From Nitrosopumilus sp. (lineage in GTDB: Archaea > Thermoproteota > Nitrososphaeria > Nitrososphaerales > Nitrosopumilaceae): a stretch of DNA of 64,000 nucleotides. The stretch lies in contig OZ243974.1 of assembly GCA_965214775.1 (NCBI GenBank), positions 448,001 through 512,000 on the forward strand. Direction: 5' to 3'. The notes under the pieces are model-generated. The model did no database searches. It was not told the DNA's origin and was given only the letters and a program-made list of their open reading frames with translations. A program made the position numbers and the translations under genes. Shown here in pieces: positions 23,787 to 33,410 of the stretch; position 1 is the first letter of the stretch, and each line of letters begins with the position of its first letter.

Positions 23787-24407
23787 ATGAAGGTGCAATG
23801 CGACGAGAAAGGAATTCTAAAGGCCTCCAAAGTTATTAAAAACGGGGGAATTGTAGTTTATCCTACTGATACCGTATACGGGATAGGCTGCAACCCCTAT
23901 CTAAAAGAATCAGTAGACAGAATTTACAAAATTAAAGGCAGGGACAGATCAAAACCGCTGCCCTTGCTAGTTTACTCAGTTGAGACGGCAGAAAAGATTG
24001 TTTTTTTTGATGAAAAGACAAGAAAAATTATTAAAAAGTTTTGGCCCGGAGCGCTGACGGTACTTTTGAAAATTACTGACCAAAAACTAAAAGAATCATT
24101 GGGAATCAAGGACAAGATTGCAATAAGAATTCCAAACAGCAAATGCGCTTTGGATTTATTGCAAAAGACTGATTTTCTTGTTGGAACCAGTGCAAATGTT
24201 TCAGGAGAAGAGCCATTTACAAATCCAGAGGATTGCTCAGCGGCAGGGCTGGCAGAGGATTGCGAGATTTTTGTAGATACGGGAGCCATCAAGAGCAGGG
24301 GAGAGTCAACAATAATCGAAGTAGTAGTGGCAGAAGGAGGAGGGGATGATCAAGTCAAAATCCTTCGAGAGGGTGCCATTAGCAGGGAGGAGATACTTGG
24401 CATATGA
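23787..24407 (+). CDS. tsaC: Threonylcarbamoyl-AMP synthase (TsaC/Sua5)
   Basis: PTDTVYG, KGR...KPL, FWPGALT, TSANVSG. Confidence 0.93.
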   Translation: MKVQCDEKGILKASKVIKNGGIVVYPTDTVYGIGCNPYLKESVDRIYKIKGRDRSKPLPLLVYSVETAEKIVFFDEKTRKIIKKFWPGALTVLLKITDQKLKESLGIKDKIAIRIPNSKCALDLLQKTDFLVGTSANVSGEEPFTNPEDCSAAGLAEDCEIFVDTGAIKSRGESTIIEVVVAEGGGDDQVKILREGAISREEILGI

Positions 24408-24925
24408 ATATGATAGTTACGTGTGCAAGACATCTTGAATCAGATACCGAGGATGAACTGAGGGGCTTTCTTGAGGAATTTGGAGATTCTGAGCCAAAAG
24501 TTGCAATTACAGACATGTCCGGGATTTTAGTTGCAGATACCAAACTAGAGCCAGTTCAGACAGTAAGAAAGATCAAAGAAAAGTTTCTTGACGAGCCCTG
24601 GAGTGTCAGATATTGCCTGAGAATAATTCCCGTTCAAAGGGAGACAGAGTCAAAAATCGGAAGTATTGTTAAAGAGGTATCAGGATTAGGCAGCCAGATA
24701 GACGAGGGTGAGACATATAGGATTTCAGTAGAAAAAAGGAATTCGGATATTTCCAGCCAGGAACTGATTGCAAGCATTGCAAGCAGGTTCAAAAACAAGG
24801 TATCATTGGAATATCCAGACAAGACAATCCTGGTTGAGATTCTTGGAAACAAGGCGGGAGTCTCGATACTGAAAAAATCAGACATTCTGAGTATAGAAAA
24901 AACCAGACGAAGTATGTCAGAGTAG
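24404..24925 (+). CDS. THUMP-domain RNA-binding protein
   Basis: YRISVEKR, VSLEYPD..ILVEI. Confidence 0.85.
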   Translation: MNMIVTCARHLESDTEDELRGFLEEFGDSEPKVAITDMSGILVADTKLEPVQTVRKIKEKFLDEPWSVRYCLRIIPVQRETESKIGSIVKEVSGLGSQIDEGETYRISVEKRNSDISSQELIASIASRFKNKVSLEYPDKTILVEILGNKAGVSILKKSDILSIEKTRRSMSE

Positions 24926-25696
24926 CACGGATGCTTTTTCTATCAGGATATCCTCAAGCGGCGTTTTTGAATTTACAGAGTCGATATGTTTCTGATTGAT
25001 TTTGAAAAAATTTTTGATAAAACTCTGGTTATCCTTTGAAAAAAGAGGTACTGCCAGGTTTTCAGACAGATGAGCGCACAGGGAACTCTGCATTGCCTTG
25101 CTGCCAATTGAAATCAAAATGAAGTTTTTGTTTGGTTTGATTCCGGCAGTCTTTATCGCATCGGAAATTTGCTTGGTAATAGCAAACCTCATCAGCAGAT
25201 CTGTTTCCAATTTTTTTGACAGCAATATTTCGTTTTTTTCTGAGTTCATTGACAGTGAGACTATTTGTCTGAGATGATAGTTGTTCAAAATAAAGCTGCT
25301 TGATATTGCCTGTATCCTTAATTTTGGGTATTTTTCCCGTAATTCATCAATAAATTTGACACCGATTTTTTTGCTGCCTTTGATTTCCATTACCTGGACT
25401 GATTTTTTCTGAGATTCAAAAGCCAATCTTTTGGCGGAGGAGCCTCCATGAATCACAGGAATGATGCTTACGATGTCATTATTTTTGATGATGGATTTTT
25501 TTCCGTCGATGGCTGACGAATCAACGCCATTAATTGCAATCAGAGAGTTTGCAAAGTCTAGTTTGGGACCATTCCCAGGTTGCAAGTTTTCTAATTCCAG
25601 CAGCAGGGATTCGATTGAAATCTCAGATGTCTCAAGACGCAATTGATCTGTCTGGAATGATTTTTTGGCCCCCCCGACAAATTTGACGGTAATCAT
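24917..25696 (-). CDS. MoaD/ThiS ubiquitin-like domain fused to KEOPS subunit Cgi121
   Basis: ITVKFVGG...LIAING.D...IIPVIHGG then Cgi121-like ETDLLMRFAITKQISDAI..AG. Confidence 0.85.
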   Translation of the reverse strand: MITVKFVGGAKKSFQTDQLRLETSEISIESLLLELENLQPGNGPKLDFANSLIAINGVDSSAIDGKKSIIKNNDIVSIIPVIHGGSSAKRLAFESQKKSVQVMEIKGSKKIGVKFIDELREKYPKLRIQAISSSFILNNYHLRQIVSLSMNSEKNEILLSKKLETDLLMRFAITKQISDAIKTAGIKPNKNFILISIGSKAMQSSLCAHLSENLAVPLFSKDNQSFIKNFFKINQKHIDSVNSKTPLEDILIEKASVLL

Positions 25697-25894
25697 TTTA
25701 ATCCAAAAGCTGTAAAGACCTAAAAAGTGTTATTCGGTTTTCTCTTCTGAACTGTCTTCGGCGATACTTTCAGTAGTCGCTTCGGCAGCAGGTTCGGCAG
25801 GCAGGACCATGAAGCTGGTTTGGACACGTGGCCTCCCCGTACGGTTTTTCAGCACATTCTGCCTGGCTGATACGTGGCTATCGTGCCTGCAAAA

Positions 25895-27100
25895 CTACGT
25901 CTGCGAAGCACTGGTGTCGGCTCGGTCGTCTTTAGACACGGAAACGTCTTGACTCCTCAGATTAGTTGGAACTTTGGCTTTGCCGTGTTTATCCAAAACA
26001 CCGTATGCCTCTAGCAGATCTGGATCTGACATGTTGACTATTGCATCGACTGGATCATCGTATTCTCTTTTATGGTCAAAATACCAGAATGCGCTGAGTA
26101 TGTGTACGCCCAACTCCTTCCTTATATAACCTGGAAAAGCGATAAAATCCGAGTCAAATGTAAAGAACACGACTTTGTATTTCTCTGCAAGATCTGCAAG
26201 AAAGGCGGCCCTTGCCAGTATTTGGATGTCGCGCCGGTCGCTATCATTTGATATGCTGATGGAATATGGATACTCGGGATCTTTTCCCTTCTTTACCATG
26301 TTCCATCTTCTTCTTTGTTGAGCTAGGCCGTCATCGTTGTTTATGGATTTGTACATCTTTTCTACTTTTTCCACCCACATATTCTGCATCTCTGACGTTA
26401 ACGTGAGTTGATTTGACTCGACGTCAGATACATTATCGGTGCACTGCTTGTGCTTGGAACTCAACACGGGTTCCAAGTCGTTTTTTCTGGCAACACTCTT
26501 GTATTCGTTCATGACATTTTCCACTATGAAAAATCTCGGTTCGCTGTCAAAAAACGTGGCCATCTTATCGTAAAACTTTTCCTTTGTGTCCAGATAGCTT
26601 TTACAAGCGTTTGTATCTGGCAGCAGAACAATGTTGGGGTTCAAGGATGCTTCCTCTGGCTTTGGTGGTTCGGTCTCTTCTGTCAACCCTTCTGGCTTTG
26701 GTGTTTCGGGTTGTTCGGTCAACCCTTCTGGCTTTGGTGTTTCGGGTTGTTCGGTCAACCCTTCTGGCTTTGGTGTTTCGGGTTGTTCGGTCAACCCTTC
26801 TGGCTTTGGTGTTTCGGGTTGTTCGGTCAACCCTTCTGGCTTTGGTGTTTCGGGTTGTTCGGTCAACCCTTCTGGCTTTGGTGTTTCGGGTTGTTGTGCT
26901 TCTTGTGATTGTTTTACTTTTTCTTCACGAATTTCTTTTTTGATAAATTTAGTAATGTACCCAGCAATCTCATTTTTCAGACATTTGGAACGAATAATTG
27001 AGATTTTATCTAATACCTTCTTATTGTCAGCAAAATCCTCACCGAATTTTGATTTGTGTACATCAAGTACCTCGTAAGAGAGACGTTTTATCCTGTCCAC
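25895..27100 (-). CDS. rps17e: Ribosomal protein S17e domain fused to a 12-aa repeat linker and a PIN-like domain
   Basis: N-terminal FGEDFADNKKVL...IRSK.LKNEIAGYIT (S17e); C-terminal LLPDTN, VMNEY, RDIQIL..A, FFTFDSDF (PIN motifs). Confidence 0.75.
   Translation of the reverse strand: MDRIKRLSYEVLDVHKSKFGEDFADNKKVLDKISIIRSKCLKNEIAGYITKFIKKEIREEKVKQSQEAQQPETPKPEGLTEQPETPKPEGLTEQPETPKPEGLTEQPETPKPEGLTEQPETPKPEGLTEQPETPKPEGLTEETEPPKPEEASLNPNIVLLPDTNACKSYLDTKEKFYDKMATFFDSEPRFFIVENVMNEYKSVARKNDLEPVLSSKHKQCTDNVSDVESNQLTLTSEMQNMWVEKVEKMYKSINNDDGLAQQRRRWNMVKKGKDPEYPYSISISNDSDRRDIQILARAAFLADLAEKYKVVFFTFDSDFIAFPGYIRKELGVHILSAFWYFDHKREYDDPVDAIVNMSDPDLLEAYGVLDKHGKAKVPTNLRSQDVSVSKDDRADTSASQT
26653..26896. 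repeat. 36-bp coding tandem repeat (about 6 copies, EQPETPKPEGLT)
   Basis: Unit TTCGGTCAACCCTTCTGGCTTTGGTGTTTCGGGTTG. Confidence 0.95.
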
Positions 27101-27143
27101 GCTTCGGATAACAACCGGGGTATTTTATACCTATATGCCACCA

Positions 27144-27264
27144 CAGTCTTCCCAGATGTACACGACTCATGGTGGTGGAGACGGCTGCATGCGGATCTGC
27201 AGGCATCATAATCTGAATTGTGGCAAATGTGGAACCGTTTTTCTGGGAACTTCTGGGAAGACTG
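27144..27264. mobile_element. MITE, 121 bp (family A copy 1)
   Basis: Terminal IR CAGTCTTCCCAGA; 5-bp duplication CACCA on both sides. Confidence 0.88.
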
Positions 27265-27797
27265 CACCATATTGGGAGTCGCCGTCGGCAGTACATCCAA
27301 GACCAGCTCCATGCCTAAAACCAAAACACGCCCAAAGCCAGCCGGGCCAGATTCGAACGTAACATCTCGCATCCTGGAAGTCGTTCCAGATTTTAGGCAC
27401 GAATGTGTTCAATCAGGGTTTTCGGGACGACAAAATTCACACCTGAACTTCCAGAGTCCGAGCTGTTACATTCGAACCGGCGCGCACACCACCGCCGCCG
27501 CCAGGCAGAGGAAGACCAGCTGCTGCGACCAATGTTGCTGCTTCTTCTGCCGCCGCTGCCCGACATATGGAGTACGGCGGCACGGGCCGCCTTGTTCCTA
27601 GCCCGTCGACGGGGCGCATCGCCATGCCGCAGGACTGTGCATATCTTTTTGATGTAACCGGTTTTTGCGTGCGTCGTGACATGATGATCCGCATGCGGCA
27701 GTTTGATCTGATCAACACGCTGACGTTTGGAAAATCTTGCGTAGTTTTTAGTCACGGCCGATTGCGCATAAAGTCTATTCTCCTGTGTACAATTGTG

Positions 27798-28559
27798 CTA
27801 TTTCATCGCAGTTTCGATGTTCTGAATAACGTTTTTTGATATTTCGTCAAATGACGGAACTGTTGGAAGTAAGGGGTTTAGATCTACATCCCACTCATTT
27901 TTCATTTTCTTAATGCCGTCTTTTATCTTATCTGATGAAAACTCTTCTTTATAGAAAGACAGTTTTGAATTTGCTAAACTTTTGTCGAGTTCAATGCCTT
28001 GCTCAAAGAGATACCACATATCATACAAATGACGTGGCTTTTGGGCATATGCCAATGCCCGTATTTTTTCAGCCATAATTTCCTCAACACTCATGCTAGG
28101 AATGGAAAAACTACCAGTTTCCAGTATACTGTAAAAATGCTGAATTGGCAGGGTTTCTACGTTCCTAACCACTTCCTCTCTCAAACTAAGGTCGATTTTG
28201 ACGGACATAGGATGACCGTTATAATTCAGGTACTTTACAGAGTATTTTTGACTGCGCTTACCAGTTTCCATCTTCTTGACTTCGGTGAAATTCACATCAA
28301 GTTGCTTGATTTTCTCTTTTAGTAAAGATTCTAGTTCATTTGAGATATCGCTATTACAGGTAAAATCAAGATCCTCTGAAAATCTCGCATCTGGAAAATA
28401 TATTTTTTTGAGTGCAGTGCCTCCCTTAAACACCATTTCAGATATTTTTGAAAATTCTGAAATTACAAGCAACAAGACAGTTGCAGAATAATCTTTTTGG
28501 ATGGTCTCTGCAAACACCCCATGCCTGCCGCCTAGCGACTTTATTTCGTCTGCATCCAT
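27798..28559 (-). CDS. AbiEii-family nucleotidyltransferase toxin (type IV TA)
   Basis: QKDY, FKGGTAL, RFSEDLDF, AEKIRA, RHLYD. Confidence 0.92.
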   Translation of the reverse strand: MDADEIKSLGGRHGVFAETIQKDYSATVLLLVISEFSKISEMVFKGGTALKKIYFPDARFSEDLDFTCNSDISNELESLLKEKIKQLDVNFTEVKKMETGKRSQKYSVKYLNYNGHPMSVKIDLSLREEVVRNVETLPIQHFYSILETGSFSIPSMSVEEIMAEKIRALAYAQKPRHLYDMWYLFEQGIELDKSLANSKLSFYKEEFSSDKIKDGIKKMKNEWDVDLNPLLPTVPSFDEISKNVIQNIETAMK

Positions 28560-28561
28560 TT

Positions 28562-29386
28562 CTAGTACTCCATCCAGCTAAGCAATTCATCCCTTGTTCT
28601 GTTAAGTATTAATCCGTATTCCTTTGAATATGCAATTCTTGTTTTTGCAGCAGTAGGATCAAGAAAACTATAGGGATACCTAGCTGTTTCTTTTTTTATT
28701 TTCTCAGACAGGTTTTTTTCTATATCGAGAATAGTGAGCAGATAGCCCAGTCTGCGTAACACGACATTGATTCCAATTTTTTTGGTTAGTTGATAAATTT
28801 CATCCCAATTGACTTCTTTTCGTATGTTCCACATCGCCTTTGTTACTTCTACTATCCCACCGCAATATTCCGGGTGAGTTAATCCGTCAACCACCGTTTT
28901 TTCTTTTGAAGAAATGTTAAAATGGTTATTTTTTCCTATTCTGTGTTCGACGTATCCAAAAAACTTCTTTTTTGATATGGTGACAAACTGGAATTTTTGA
29001 TTTCCAAACTTTAGGATGCGATTTTTCTTTCGTTTCGGTGTAACGACAAAAACCGTGTAGGGTATCTGTTCTGTCATGTCCCAAAAATTCATCGCAGTCC
29101 AGAATCCGACATAATATTCACCAATTAGTCGAGGTACAATTAGCCAGGGATCCTCAGACCAATATCCCTCAGGACCGGCTCTTGCAGGGATAAGGAGATA
29201 TTTTCCGTTTTCAATTTCTTGTAATCTCTTCTTTTTTTTCAATCCTTCAATTACATTCCAAGCAGCAGAATCTGTTCCTTCAAGAATATTTCTAGCATCG
29301 TCGAAGGTAAAGACACTCATTTTCTTCATTTCCAGACTAAACAGTAGTTTTGTTTCCTGCGGCCCCAACCGTATATTTTGTGCCAT
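28562..29386 (-). CDS. AbiEi-family antitoxin/transcriptional regulator (type IV TA)
   Basis: N-terminal wHTH (GKY), YVGFWTA, TEQIP, EKTVVD, RRLGYLL; directly upstream of the toxin. Confidence 0.9.
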   Translation of the reverse strand: MAQNIRLGPQETKLLFSLEMKKMSVFTFDDARNILEGTDSAAWNVIEGLKKKKRLQEIENGKYLLIPARAGPEGYWSEDPWLIVPRLIGEYYVGFWTAMNFWDMTEQIPYTVFVVTPKRKKNRILKFGNQKFQFVTISKKKFFGYVEHRIGKNNHFNISSKEKTVVDGLTHPEYCGGIVEVTKAMWNIRKEVNWDEIYQLTKKIGINVVLRRLGYLLTILDIEKNLSEKIKKETARYPYSFLDPTAAKTRIAYSKEYGLILNRTRDELLSWMEY

Positions 29387-30872: not shown

Positions 30873-32024
30873 TGTGGGATCCAGAAAGTAGTTCGCCCCC
30901 CCTTATTTGACATCATACTCCTCTCCTGTCTGCCCGTCAATAACGGTTTCCCCCTCCTTGGGCATCTTTCTGAGAAATGCCTGTGCGGGCGTCTCCTGAT
31001 TGTCCCAGTCCAGCGACCTGTGGGGCCTGTCATGATTGTACCACTGCATGAACAGGTCTATCGGGTCGCTTTTTCTCATCATGATCTCCTCGAACTCGTG
31101 CAGCTTGCGCTGGATCTCCCCGTGGAGGCGCTCGACCTTTCCGTTGGTCTGGGGTCGTCCCACGCCTGCCAGGATCTGCCGTATTCCCAGTTCTGTCAGT
31201 TTCTTTTCAAACTCGCCTTCGCCCCTCTTTTTTGCCGTCTCTTTCTCGTTGGCATAGAACTGGCTGCCGTGGTCTGTCATGATCGAGGCCGGCTTGCCGT
31301 GCTTTTCTATTGCCGTCTCAAGCACTGCCAGGGCGTTTTTGGTCGTGGCATTATCAAAGATGCCATATCCGGTCACAAACCTGGAGGCATCGTCCTCGTA
31401 GCACAGGAACCATCTGCCGTCGTGCATTCCGCCGTGGATCTGCTTCCAGTCTGTATGCCACAGCGAGTTTGAGTGATCGCGCTCGTATCGGACCCACCTG
31501 TACCTTGTACCCTTGCTGGGCTGCGCCTCTGCCATCTCCTCGTCCCTCAGTATCTTGTGTATGATGCCGTGCGGGATATGGATTCCGGTCTGATTCGCTA
31601 TGCGCTGCTGCAGTCCTGCAGCCCCCATGCGCTCTGCATGTCTGGCAGACATGACTGCAGAGTGCTCCCTGCGTCCGGGCAGACCGTTCTGGGGCCTTCC
31701 CATTGGCGCAGGATGCGATATTTCGCTTGCCGCAGGGCAGCCTTTGTGCCTGGCCCACAGCTTCTGGACCCACCGTACTGTCACGTCCATGGTTCCGGCT
31801 ATCTGGGCGTTGGTAAGCTCGCCCTTTTTCTTTTCTTTCACTATCCATTGTACTTGGCTTTTCTCTAGCTTCATGCCGTTTGGGTGCTCAAGACTCACGT
31901 ATTTACGGAGCTTTCGTCGCCAGACCCACACACCTGTACTTCCAGTGTGGGTCAGGCTTGCACATCTGCTCCTGACCGACTTTACACACTCGGAGAAGGG
32001 GTGAACTACTTTTTGGACTATACA
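30873..32024 (-). mobile_element. IS481-family insertion sequence, copy A (1152 bp)
   Basis: TGT...ACA ends with imperfect IRs; 16-bp flanking duplication GCGTTGGTGTTTGCTG; near-identical to 50458-51609. Confidence 0.93.
30903..31874 (-). CDS. IS481-family DDE transposase
   Basis: WHTDWK, DDASR, TDHGSQF, PQTNGKVERLH, YN..RPH.SL. Confidence 0.93.
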   Translation of the reverse strand: MKLEKSQVQWIVKEKKKGELTNAQIAGTMDVTVRWVQKLWARHKGCPAASEISHPAPMGRPQNGLPGRREHSAVMSARHAERMGAAGLQQRIANQTGIHIPHGIIHKILRDEEMAEAQPSKGTRYRWVRYERDHSNSLWHTDWKQIHGGMHDGRWFLCYEDDASRFVTGYGIFDNATTKNALAVLETAIEKHGKPASIMTDHGSQFYANEKETAKKRGEGEFEKKLTELGIRQILAGVGRPQTNGKVERLHGEIQRKLHEFEEIMMRKSDPIDLFMQWYNHDRPHRSLDWDNQETPAQAFLRKMPKEGETVIDGQTGEEYDVK

Positions 32025-32824
32025 GCGTTGGTGTTTGCTGTAAAACTCTTAATTAACTCCTTCATCTCATCAGAACTCACTCCGATAGCATCCGAAGCTA
32101 CTTTGTAATCAGAATCACCAATTTGCGAAACTGCTTTTTCAATGTCATTTTGTGACAAAAGTTTCAACACGCCTGATTTGAGCGCATCTAGTTTTGTCTC
32201 CGAATACCACATCAGTGCATAGATATCGGCAACATCCTTCCTTTTTTTGTGATCTTTGTTCCGGTTTGGTAGCGAAATGAGCTTGGTAGCAAGCAGGATC
32301 TCTGGTTTTGGAAGCCTAACAGTTACCCCGAATTCCTTAGTTTCTACAAACTCGCCCTTTTCAAACAGCAAACCAAGTAATTTTTCATCAGCAGGCGTGA
32401 TTCCCAAAACGTCATGGATGTTATTCGGTATGTTATCTACCAGAGGATCTACGTACAAATCAAACAGATCGTATTGCGGTGTTTTACGGGCTTCTTGTTC
32501 TGTGAGCACTCTTTTTGTTTCTCTATGATAGTGTTGAACTAGGCGAAAACCAATCGAATAAAATCCAATGCCCTCCAGTGCACGAACGGATTGGTTAAAT
32601 GCGGAATTCTCCATCGATTCTCTGGTTTCATTCTTTGAAAAATGAAATCCCAGGTCAATGTCTTTTGAGCCATGATAATCACGCCCTTTGTCTTTTTTGT
32701 AGTTCTTGTTTATCGTAAGATAAACCGCCCACCCGCCAAGCAAACAAAGCGGCTTGGTTACTTTGGAAAACACCCTGACAAGGCTATCTCTTGAAATTTC
32801 CGTCTCATGCTCTTCATAAAGCAT
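32018..32824 (-). CDS. Nucleotidyltransferase-fold (AbiEii-like) protein; last codons altered by IS481
   Basis: LLGGWAV, SKDIDL, LLATKL, KRKDVADI. Confidence 0.8.
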   Translation of the reverse strand: MLYEEHETEISRDSLVRVFSKVTKPLCLLGGWAVYLTINKNYKKDKGRDYHGSKDIDLGFHFSKNETRESMENSAFNQSVRALEGIGFYSIGFRLVQHYHRETKRVLTEQEARKTPQYDLFDLYVDPLVDNIPNNIHDVLGITPADEKLLGLLFEKGEFVETKEFGVTVRLPKPEILLATKLISLPNRNKDHKKRKDVADIYALMWYSETKLDALKSGVLKLLSQNDIEKAVSQIGDSDYKVASDAIGVSSDEMKELIKSFTANTNAV

Positions 32825-33410
32825 CCTTTTCCACCTTTTCCAGCAACATGTCGCCTGCCTCCCCACAGGCACCGCTCTCGTTGTACAGATCAAGTATGAC
32901 TTGCGGAACAGATGCCAGGGTCAGGCCATCGACCTGAAATGACTTGTAAAACACGTGTTCGTCTCCGTAAATAACGCGCACATTTCCTTTTCCCACCAGT
33001 CCGTTTGCAACAAAGAGCTTGTGCCACTGTAGTCTGTCCGAATGGTGAACGTAAATGTCGGTTCTAGACGGAAACAGATAGTTTTGTATTTTGTTTTCTG
33101 CCCTATATGTGGTGAGCGCATATTCCAGATCCGTTTCTTGTAGCAGTTCCAGAGGTTTTTGTACCATGTACTCCCTGTATTGAAAGGCAGGCTGCCATTT
33201 CTGCCACCACAAAAACAGCGATCTAAAATCTCTCACTCTGGTTTTGTGGATTATTCCCTGCTTTTCCAGTCTTTGCAGCAATTCATGTATCCACGAATAT
33301 CCACTATCGGCCAATTTTGCTATTCGATACTTTGTCAATTTTCCGGCAGGCTCATTTAACAGAACTCGTGCCACTCTACCCTTGATGCTAGACCGTGTCT
33401 CTTTTTTCAT
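32814..33410 (-). CDS. HTH / AbiEi-like antitoxin partner
   Basis: N-terminal HTH, YALT, DIYV, SVPQVILDL; overlaps the nucleotidyltransferase gene. Confidence 0.7.
   Translation of the reverse strand: MKKETRSSIKGRVARVLLNEPAGKLTKYRIAKLADSGYSWIHELLQRLEKQGIIHKTRVRDFRSLFLWWQKWQPAFQYREYMVQKPLELLQETDLEYALTTYRAENKIQNYLFPSRTDIYVHHSDRLQWHKLFVANGLVGKGNVRVIYGDEHVFYKSFQVDGLTLASVPQVILDLYNESGACGEAGDMLLEKVEKDAL

Follow-up and report, generated by a model that had tools for sequence, protein, structure and literature searches.

Can a core protein of the small ribosomal subunit take up a folded, nuclease-like domain and still serve the ribosome? Ribosomal proteins are encoded by some of the most conservative genes, and a nuclease domain in a core small-subunit protein is unusual. 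The question is raised by the gene for ribosomal protein S17e of Nitrosopumilus sp., an archaeon of the ammonia-oxidiser type, which we analysed in a stretch of 64,000 nucleotides (contig OZ243974.1, positions 448,001 to 512,000; hereafter the window, whose first letter is position 1). In the window, the only S17e gene of the genome reads in frame into a PIN-like domain, and an insert of 846 bp separates the body of the gene from its native C-terminal codons, which lie stranded beyond a stop codon.

Anatomy of a chimeric S17e gene

The gene lies on the reverse strand, and its parts are as follows.

25895..27100 (-), chimeric S17e::PIN-like open reading frame (ORF) of 401 amino acids (aa), with a GTG start, a TAG stop and three parts
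26894..27100 (-), globular (helical) S17e domain, codons 1-69, assigned by Pfam PF00833 and identity to relatives, with helices predicted over residues 2-69
26648..26893 (-), native low-complexity S17e tail, codons 70-151, which includes a 36-bp tandem array and is predicted to be disordered
25802..26647 (-), inserted segment of 846 bp, or 282 codons, between codon A151 (..PEEA) and the native P codon of PAE..
25913..26647 (-), part that encodes the putative PIN-like nuclease (residues 152 to ~396), equivalent to codons ~13 to ~257 of P0003, a free-standing relative
25895..25897 (-), TAG stop of the chimeric ORF, with no other letter in contigs of the three covering runs (X1, X2, X6)
25802..25894 (-), 93 nt, or 31 codons in frame, that part the TAG from the native tail and are possibly donor 3' flank
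25730..25801 (-), stranded native S17e C-terminus, 23 codons (PAEPAAEATTESIAEDSSEEKTE) and a TAA stop at 25730-25732, collinear with relatives
27115..27137 (-), conserved element that resembles a promoter (TATA-like ATATAGGTATAAAATACC), located ~25 nt upstream of the start codon and common to the closest relative, G090

Residues 4-69 of the ORF match Pfam Ribosomal_S17e (PF00833) with an E value of 3.2e-17 and 63 bits (cut-off 22.8); against the NCBIfam S17e equivalog NF002242 the score is 56.2 bits, under its cut-off of 72. Together with the PIN-like matches given below, the Pfam match bears out an earlier, sequence-only reading of this DNA, which had described an in-frame fusion of S17e to a PIN-like domain in one 401-aa ORF. 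The same reading had counted six 12-aa repeats between the two domains, and this count holds: Tandem Repeats Finder reports 6.7 copies of a 36-bp unit with 97% matches at 26655-26895, and the translation of the array comprises six perfect QPETPKPEGLTE units (12 aa each) and one degenerate unit. In a predicted structure of the full-length protein the N-terminal domain is helical, residues 70-149 have a predicted local distance difference test score (pLDDT) <50, and the PIN-like domain scores >90. The stranded tail shares the reading frame of the 401-aa ORF, from which it is separated by the single TAG and 31 codons. The element at 27115..27137 would act as the promoter; note that many relatives show it as 'EYRYKIP', in frame and upstream of the start. 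Neither the Rfam nor the tRNA scan of the whole window gave a match.

The boundaries of the insert were mapped against genomes G090 and G065, picked as the closest by a DNA search over 151 genomes of the genus. The nucleotide identity of the S17e domain to these two is 89-91%, and the promoter-like element is also common to them. Their S17e tails read ...EEA followed by PAETVVESATETNTEENSEEKTE and a stop codon (G090) and ...EEA followed by PAQTVVESTTTTGTGESSEEKTE and a stop codon (G065); the tail in the window reads ...PKPEEA, then foreign sequence, then PAEPAAEATTESIAEDSSEEKTE and a stop codon. Homology to both relatives ends at ~26905, in the S17e domain, and resumes at 25801. We fixed the 5' boundary at 26648 because the ..EEA before the insert matches the junction of EEA and PAE in both relatives; the comparison of related S17e loci, which had been put forward as a check, thus places the insertion between EEA and PAE. 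The stranded 23 residues are collinear with the last 23 of G090 S17e at 23/23 positions, without a gap, and finish in the EEKTE typical of the genus, so that the proposal that the downstream piece is the native C-terminus proved right. Its displacement by an insertion was likewise read correctly, whereas the size suggested for that insertion ('about 1 kb') was too large: by comparison with G090 and G065 the insert runs from 26647 to 25802 and measures 846 bp, exactly 282 codons. The 12-aa repeats are native tail and not insert, because G065 has 3 x EAQQETVSEPAP (12 aa, starting EAQQ) at the same place.

Short similar words stand at the two ends of the insert (TCCTTG at its start, TCCTG|CCTG at its end), and neither a target-site duplication nor insertion sequence (IS) ends were seen there. 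The 93-nt segment 25802..25894 has no other copy in the genome and is not homologous to G090 or G065, and a 30-mer taken from it had no exact match in metagenome contigs. We propose illegitimate recombination as the process that placed an 846-bp fragment precisely between two codons in the disordered acidic tail, because there are no transposon ends and only a few bases of similarity. The fragment would comprise codons ~13 to ~257 of a PIN-like gene and 111 nt, perhaps the end of the donor gene together with its 3' flank, and its arrival would have left the native promoter, the start codon and the S17e fold intact. A ribosome translating the gene would then read S17e, the native repeat tail (~80 residues) and the PIN-like domain in turn and stop at the TAG, so that the last 23 native codons go untranslated.

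The same arrangement would be seen if two loci had been misjoined through the 36-bp repeat during assembly. We compared the window with short assembled contigs of public runs from different studies (four runs). Contigs with zero differences cover 25064-26710 (X1, record 1), 25000-26091 and 26067-26711 (X2, records 9 and 10) and 25307-25919 (X6, record 18); they bridge the 3' junction of the insert in three runs (X1, X2 and X6) and the 5' junction in two (X1 and X2). In keeping with a misjoin, no contig in the four runs spans the whole array, and 26711-26865 is bare or nearly so. However, contigs of X1 and X2 enter the array from both sides, reaching 55-60 nt into it from the PIN side and 30 nt from the S17e side, and the array sequence is found at one place only in the 2.83-Mb genome. 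A single array leaves neither flank an alternative partner. Moreover, native S17e sequence flanks the insert on both sides in the right order and frame, and a separate ENA assembly (protein P0002, 389 aa, on a contig of 166,905 bp) spans the array and carries the same fusion. P0002 is 100% identical to the window over residues 150-401 and terminates at the same residue as the chimeric ORF; it has five repeat units, some of them variant, instead of six, in agreement with the earlier description of the linker as variable in length. The evidence thus speaks against an assembly error, and we assign that explanation hardly any probability.

The inserted domain and its relatives

The protein itself falls below every Pfam PIN cut-off, its match to Pfam PIN having an E value of 0.19 and 12.8 bits against a cut-off of 23.6. 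An exhaustive phmmer search over 1.84 billion representative proteins (E <= 0.001) returned 10 proteins only, which makes this a very small family. Two of the relatives do pass PIN thresholds: P0012 (E 1.3e-4) passes PIN_8 (27.6 against 26.1) and PIN_4 (22.1 against 21.9), and P0014 (E 4.9e-4) passes Pfam PIN (24.3 against 23.6). The best matches in a profile search of PDB sequences were a PIN protein, 1o4w (E 0.077), and VapC 3zvk (E 0.25). The acidic motifs singled out in the sequence-only reading (PDTN, E, D..IL..A and TFDSD) are real and fall in nearly invariant columns of the family, namely D162 (PDTN), E199, D291 (DIQIL) and D316/D318 (TFDSDF), so that acidic residues occupy the canonical PIN positions; column 162 is D or E (E in P0003 and P0010), and T314 is also nearly invariant. 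Of the columns invariant in five relatives, 33/37 are kept here, and the corresponding leave-one-out values for the relatives themselves range from 33/34 to 33/46.

An AlphaFold (AF2) model of the domain (pLDDT 89.1, predicted template modelling score 0.87) predicts a fold of ~240 aa with confidence. Foldseek gave no match in the PDB at E <= 0.001, and its list is headed by, and mostly consists of, PIN folds: VapC11 at the top (6a7v; E 0.067, prob 0.97, template modelling score 0.57 by target), and also the Rrp44 PIN domain, FitB, VapC/VapC20 and PRORP. The first match in the ESM Atlas was a PIN_halo cluster (0.91, with only 144 shared features). The best matches by sequence, profile and predicted fold are thus all PIN nucleases, though weak, and we refer to the inserted domain as PIN-like.

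Outside S17e the domain is found in three settings. In one, represented by P0003 (65% aa identical) and by a paralogue in the same genome, the PIN-like domain is followed by a C-terminal domain, which in P0003 matches RE_AspBHI_N (E 7e-4) and PADLOC mREase_IV (E 7e-4), both weakly. In another (P0006-P0009) it is C-terminal and stands behind a Cys-rich ectodomain, a membrane helix and a low-complexity linker. The remaining setting is that of short stand-alone proteins. Distant homologues of this last kind (~110-170 aa; L028 336-1770, L029 1483-2918 and L031 341-1770) adjoin a conserved ORF of 206-282 aa, with which they may form a two-gene module; this ORF was considered as a known antitoxin family, and no Pfam family matched it. 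The paralogue is located as follows, in the numbering in which the window is G000:C1:448001-512000.

G000:C1:974117-976349 (L022 5596-8518), broken paralogue (PIN-like and SRA/AspBHI_N-like), adjoining urease genes

The paralogue is disrupted by a frameshift and by a 1.5-kb DDE_Tnp_4 IS. (A second copy of the same IS lies beside it in inverted orientation.) Nucleotide homology between the insert and the paralogue (aligned at G000:C1:974128-976345) extends over window 26646-25915, at 74% and 71% identity, and by this alignment the insert carries codons ~13 to ~257 of a PIN-like gene without its partner domain: the homology ends near residue 396, and the modified-base reader is absent from the S17e-fused copy. 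The last 111 nt of the insert (six codons, the TAG and 93 nt) occur at one genomic place only and are otherwise unmatched. The TAG may be the donor gene's own stop, because membrane-type members end 10-20 residues past a shared GKAK.P motif, and the 93 nt after it are possibly donor 3' flank. A search for the donor found no relative of the PIN-like domain in viral contigs, phage records or metagenome contigs; a search of genome contigs gave one locus only, that of a membrane-anchored relative. Note that the substrate of the domain could be DNA rather than RNA, because its nearest free-standing relatives carry a domain that resembles a reader of modified DNA.

The PIN-like domain is present in 11/151 genomes of the genus and fused to S17e in 1/151; no S17e domain lay near the other PIN-like matches in the 12 loci fetched (9 of the 10 other genomes). 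We also sought S17e-domain proteins of 220-702 aa in a collection of 5.8 billion proteins, and the 68 candidates reduced to four clusters: P0002, which is the present fusion; P0015 and P0016, which have long low-complexity tails; and P0017. (The search requires shared 5-residue words, and S17e fusions in distant archaea would therefore be missed.) P0017, a protein of 321 aa on an ENA metagenome contig of 3,993 bp, consists of S17e, a charged helical linker and a PIN_12-like domain with the acidic motifs PDTN and NDHD, which spans the whole PIN_12 profile at an E value of 2.5e-5 and 25.2 bits (below the cut-off of 32). It shares with the window protein the order S17e, linker, PIN-like domain; its linker is a charged helix, whereas that in the window is made of P/E/T repeats. 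The PIN parts of the two gave no BLASTP alignment, and hhalign related them with a probability of 33% over 34 columns. We read P0017 as an independent fusion event involving an unrelated PIN domain, because the PIN family differs, the PIN parts cannot be aligned and the linker is of another type. Among 1072 candidates the PIN part of P0017 has no other relative; across 401 genomes of the class it matched a single protein, weakly, and this one too is membrane-anchored and carries a linker. In a full-text literature search S17e-PIN fusions did not come up, and neither 'ribosomal protein' nor 'S17' occurs in the main text of a PIN catalogue (PMC5499597); the annotations in its Supplementary Table S1 might include such an architecture.

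A tolerated or a selected chimera

S17e was compared across 19 loci from genomes of the same genus and 4 further genomes, and tail ends were counted in the 22 genomes with a complete gene end (L009, cut at a contig end, was dropped). In this genus S17e is short, ~95-125 aa from a conserved V/M/L start at the same codon, and consists of the domain and an acidic T/E/P-rich tail; in other families of the order it is about 60-70 aa, in open frames of about 68-116 aa. The tail is repeat-prone in the genus (9 x ATPETVTE in G021 and 5 x AETANV in G014, besides the repeats of G065). It terminates in exactly EEKTE in 11/22 genomes, and the pattern [ED][EN]K[TSA][ED] fits 18/22. An acidic, repeat-prone extension with a conserved terminus is therefore genus-wide, although passages of two papers (PMC9932298, PMC7005279) deny archaeal S17e an extension. 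One relative, G002 (L020, G002:C1:984024-987506), has an S17e open frame of 297 aa in which AAAEQAVSEPVVEQEP repeats give way to repeats of SRQFQSQWWSRNRRRQ; apparently one and the same DNA repeat is read there in another frame, owing to a frameshift within a repeat expansion.

The search for a second S17e copy that the sequence-only reading had recommended found none: PF00833 has one match in the whole genome (2.83 Mb, a single contig, 99.9% complete), and this is the chimeric gene. The S17e domain is identical to that of G090 at 59/66 residues and to that of G065 at 60/66. Its ratio of nonsynonymous to synonymous substitution rates (dN/dS) is 0.10 against G090 and 0.13 against G065, with 0.06 for a control pair, values that point to purifying selection on the domain. 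The branch leading to the window carries ~6 replacements, among them G40C at a mostly conserved Gly, as compared with ~1 on each relative's branch (66 codons, so that the counts are very small).

We infer that the chimera is made and incorporated as a working S17e, because this is the genome's only S17e and because its tail formed a long and variable appendage even before the insertion. Ribosomes of this organism would then probably carry a tethered PIN-like domain, a putative nuclease. Passages of two papers (PMC9932298, PMC7005279) place eS17 (S17e) on the side of the small subunit that has the mRNA exit channel and state that eukaryotic eS17's long C-terminal extension, absent in archaeal orthologues, contacts mRNA. 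The PIN-like domain would dangle from the 30S subunit by a flexible tether, on its solvent side and close to the mRNA exit, and with 80 residues between it and the S17e C-terminus it could reach the mRNA exit region.

On balance, and with reservations, we lean toward an evolutionarily young chimera that is tolerated rather than selected. Tolerance is preferred because the tail was already long, variable and solvent-exposed and because the captured domain has lost the targeting part of its relatives (an SRA-like reader or a membrane/ectodomain portion); that the chimera is young and rare is suggested by the occurrence of the domain in few of the genomes surveyed (11/151), by the lack of an S17e domain in the 12 loci fetched around the other matches (9 of the 10 other genomes) and by a stranded tail that is still collinear with G090. 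Several observations weigh against a merely tolerated domain. It is undecayed, with an open frame of 250 codons, 33/37 invariant columns and all PIN acidic residues in place. Both junctions are in frame, for which a random insertion has a chance of ~1-in-9, and this is not decisive. A second, independent S17e-PIN fusion exists in P0017, and both clusters with a globular addition, out of the four, carry a PIN-like domain, a pattern that may point to selection or to a mechanism with a strong bias.

The same recurrence, with an unrelated PIN domain, speaks for a selected function, in which every 30S subunit bears a nuclease on a tether next to the mRNA exit and the chimera has been kept as useful; as an effector resident on the ribosome, the nuclease might cleave mRNA, the 16S 3' end or tRNA under stress or virus infection, the repeat array setting its reach. 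The intact catalytic constellation and family-invariant residues fit this idea, as do the difference in tether length between strains (5 versus 6 units) and the presence of ribosome- or RNA-directed PINs (VapC20, the Rrp44 PIN domain) among the top fold matches; the location of eS17 at the mRNA exit channel and the mRNA contact of its eukaryotic extension, as given in passages of PMC9932298 and PMC7005279, point the same way. However, each fusion is a singleton lineage (1/151 genomes of the genus in one case, a PIN part nearly devoid of relatives in the other), and recurrence can also be explained by mutation bias: in relatives of both PIN types, which are membrane proteins, the PIN domain follows a long low-complexity linker, and such linkers could recombine with the low-complexity S17e tail. 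A stoichiometric, active PIN RNase on ribosomes is also expected to be toxic, as VapC toxins are. We therefore consider selection for such a function rather unlikely, and we are equally doubtful of the full claim that this working S17e places a competent PIN-like nuclease on every small subunit, on a repeat-variable tether of ~80 residues by the mRNA exit, as a selected device that arose at least twice for defence or quality-control cleavage of mRNA or rRNA. Ribosomes might, alternatively, lack the PIN part, either because the tail is clipped in the disordered linker or because the S17e gene is declining toward decay. A segment of 80 residues with predicted pLDDT <50 between the domains would suit clipping, and the excess of replacements on the window branch, G40C included, would suit decay. 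Yet that excess rests on very small counts, dN/dS in the S17e domain is still 0.10-0.13, no second S17e is there to take over, and the presence of S17e in 38/41 related genomes indicates that it is not commonly dispensable; we judge ribosomes without the PIN part to be improbable. A young, tolerated chimera thus remains the reading that we prefer.

As the sole S17e gene, the chimera is a natural test of what cargo is tolerated on the tail of a ribosomal protein and, if the domain is active, of a nuclease anchored beside the mRNA exit. With the native junction of EEA and PAE preserved in two relatives and the old tail still in place, it records the birth of a multidomain gene from a gene fragment. 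With P0017 as another, unrelated fusion of S17e and PIN, whether chance or selection is at work can be tested directly, and the inserted domain itself represents a very small, uncharacterised PIN-like family with three architectures.

Surroundings and known systems

The neighbours of the gene include a syntenic anchor on its 3' side and three dispersed repeats on its 5' side, similar to miniature inverted-repeat transposable elements (MITEs).

24917..25696 (-), ThiS/Urm1-like and Cgi121 (KEOPS) gene, the syntenic anchor that is next after S17e in relatives
27141..27267, MITE-like dispersed repeat of family 1, just upstream of the S17e promoter, at 98 places in the genome
27350-27475, MITE-like dispersed repeat of family 2, at 55 places in the genome
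27536-27780, MITE-like dispersed repeat of family 3, at 36 places in the genome, copies of which also flank the IS copies at the broken paralogue

A Cgi121 gene lies 3' of S17e in 18/19 relative loci, and a convergent THUMP gene is present in 16/19. The spacing from the S17e start to the Cgi121 start is ~380-450 nt in relative loci versus 1404 nt here. The Cgi121 protein has an N-terminal ThiS/Urm1-like beta-grasp domain (Pfam ThiS, E 4e-6, residues 5-85) before CGI-121 (residues 117-254), and this full-length form is kept in 16/19 relative loci. A Sua5/YrdC gene (23787-24407) lies 0.5 kb from Cgi121, so that two genes of the t6A pathway are neighbours. On the other side, the dispersed repeats explain a GC-rich stretch at 27140-27780; one contig of run X7 joins 27140 to 27268, skipping the first element, which is thus polymorphic between strains. 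Further upstream, at 27798-29386 and 30903-33410, are an AbiEii/AbiEi pair, an rve-type integrase and a second AbiEii-like gene with a helix-turn-helix partner. The S17e gene borders an island of mobile and defence DNA that comprises three MITE-like families, two AbiE-type modules and an rve integrase, a setting that we count in favour of a young capture; the 19 relative S17e loci gave no AbiEii match.

Among the closest known systems is eS17 (PF00833) itself. The gene in the window has the normal domain at residues 1-69, the S17e-Cgi121-THUMP neighbourhood and the status of only copy; it differs from its relatives in the genus (95-125 aa) in that it encodes 401 aa with a folded, nuclease-like domain and leaves the EEKTE end untranslated. 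The eukaryotic eS17 extension is likewise a C-terminal appendage, running from the globular domain toward the mRNA exit channel according to passages of PMC9932298 and PMC7005279, whereas this genus possesses its own tail, acidic and repeat-prone, to which a globular domain has been added here. PINs of the VapC group (VapC, PIN_4, PIN_8, PIN_12; Matelska et al. 2017, PMC5499597) share with the inserted domain a predicted strand-helix core and four conserved acidic positions; the domain described here differs from them in a large helical insertion (~residues 205-285) and a C-terminal helical addition of 50 residues. In contrast to a VapBC module, it is fused rather than free and has no antitoxin gene, and what lies upstream are the MITE-like repeats and a separate AbiEii/AbiEi pair.

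A likeness to type IV modification-dependent restriction endonucleases with an SRA-like reader (AspBHI/MspJI) is seen in P0003 and the own-genome paralogue, which join the domain to a reader-like part recognised by weak matches that lie below a curated cut-off or lack one; the S17e-fused copy has no reader domain. Known members of the AspBHI/MspJI type use other nuclease folds. A further parallel is that of natural ribosomal-protein fusions such as ubiquitin-eS31 and ubiquitin-eL40, in which a ribosomal protein and an unrelated folded domain are likewise encoded by one ORF. The ubiquitin fusions are ancient and conserved, and their extra domain is N-terminal and is cleaved off, whereas the fusion described here is lineage-specific and carries its added domain at the C-terminus.

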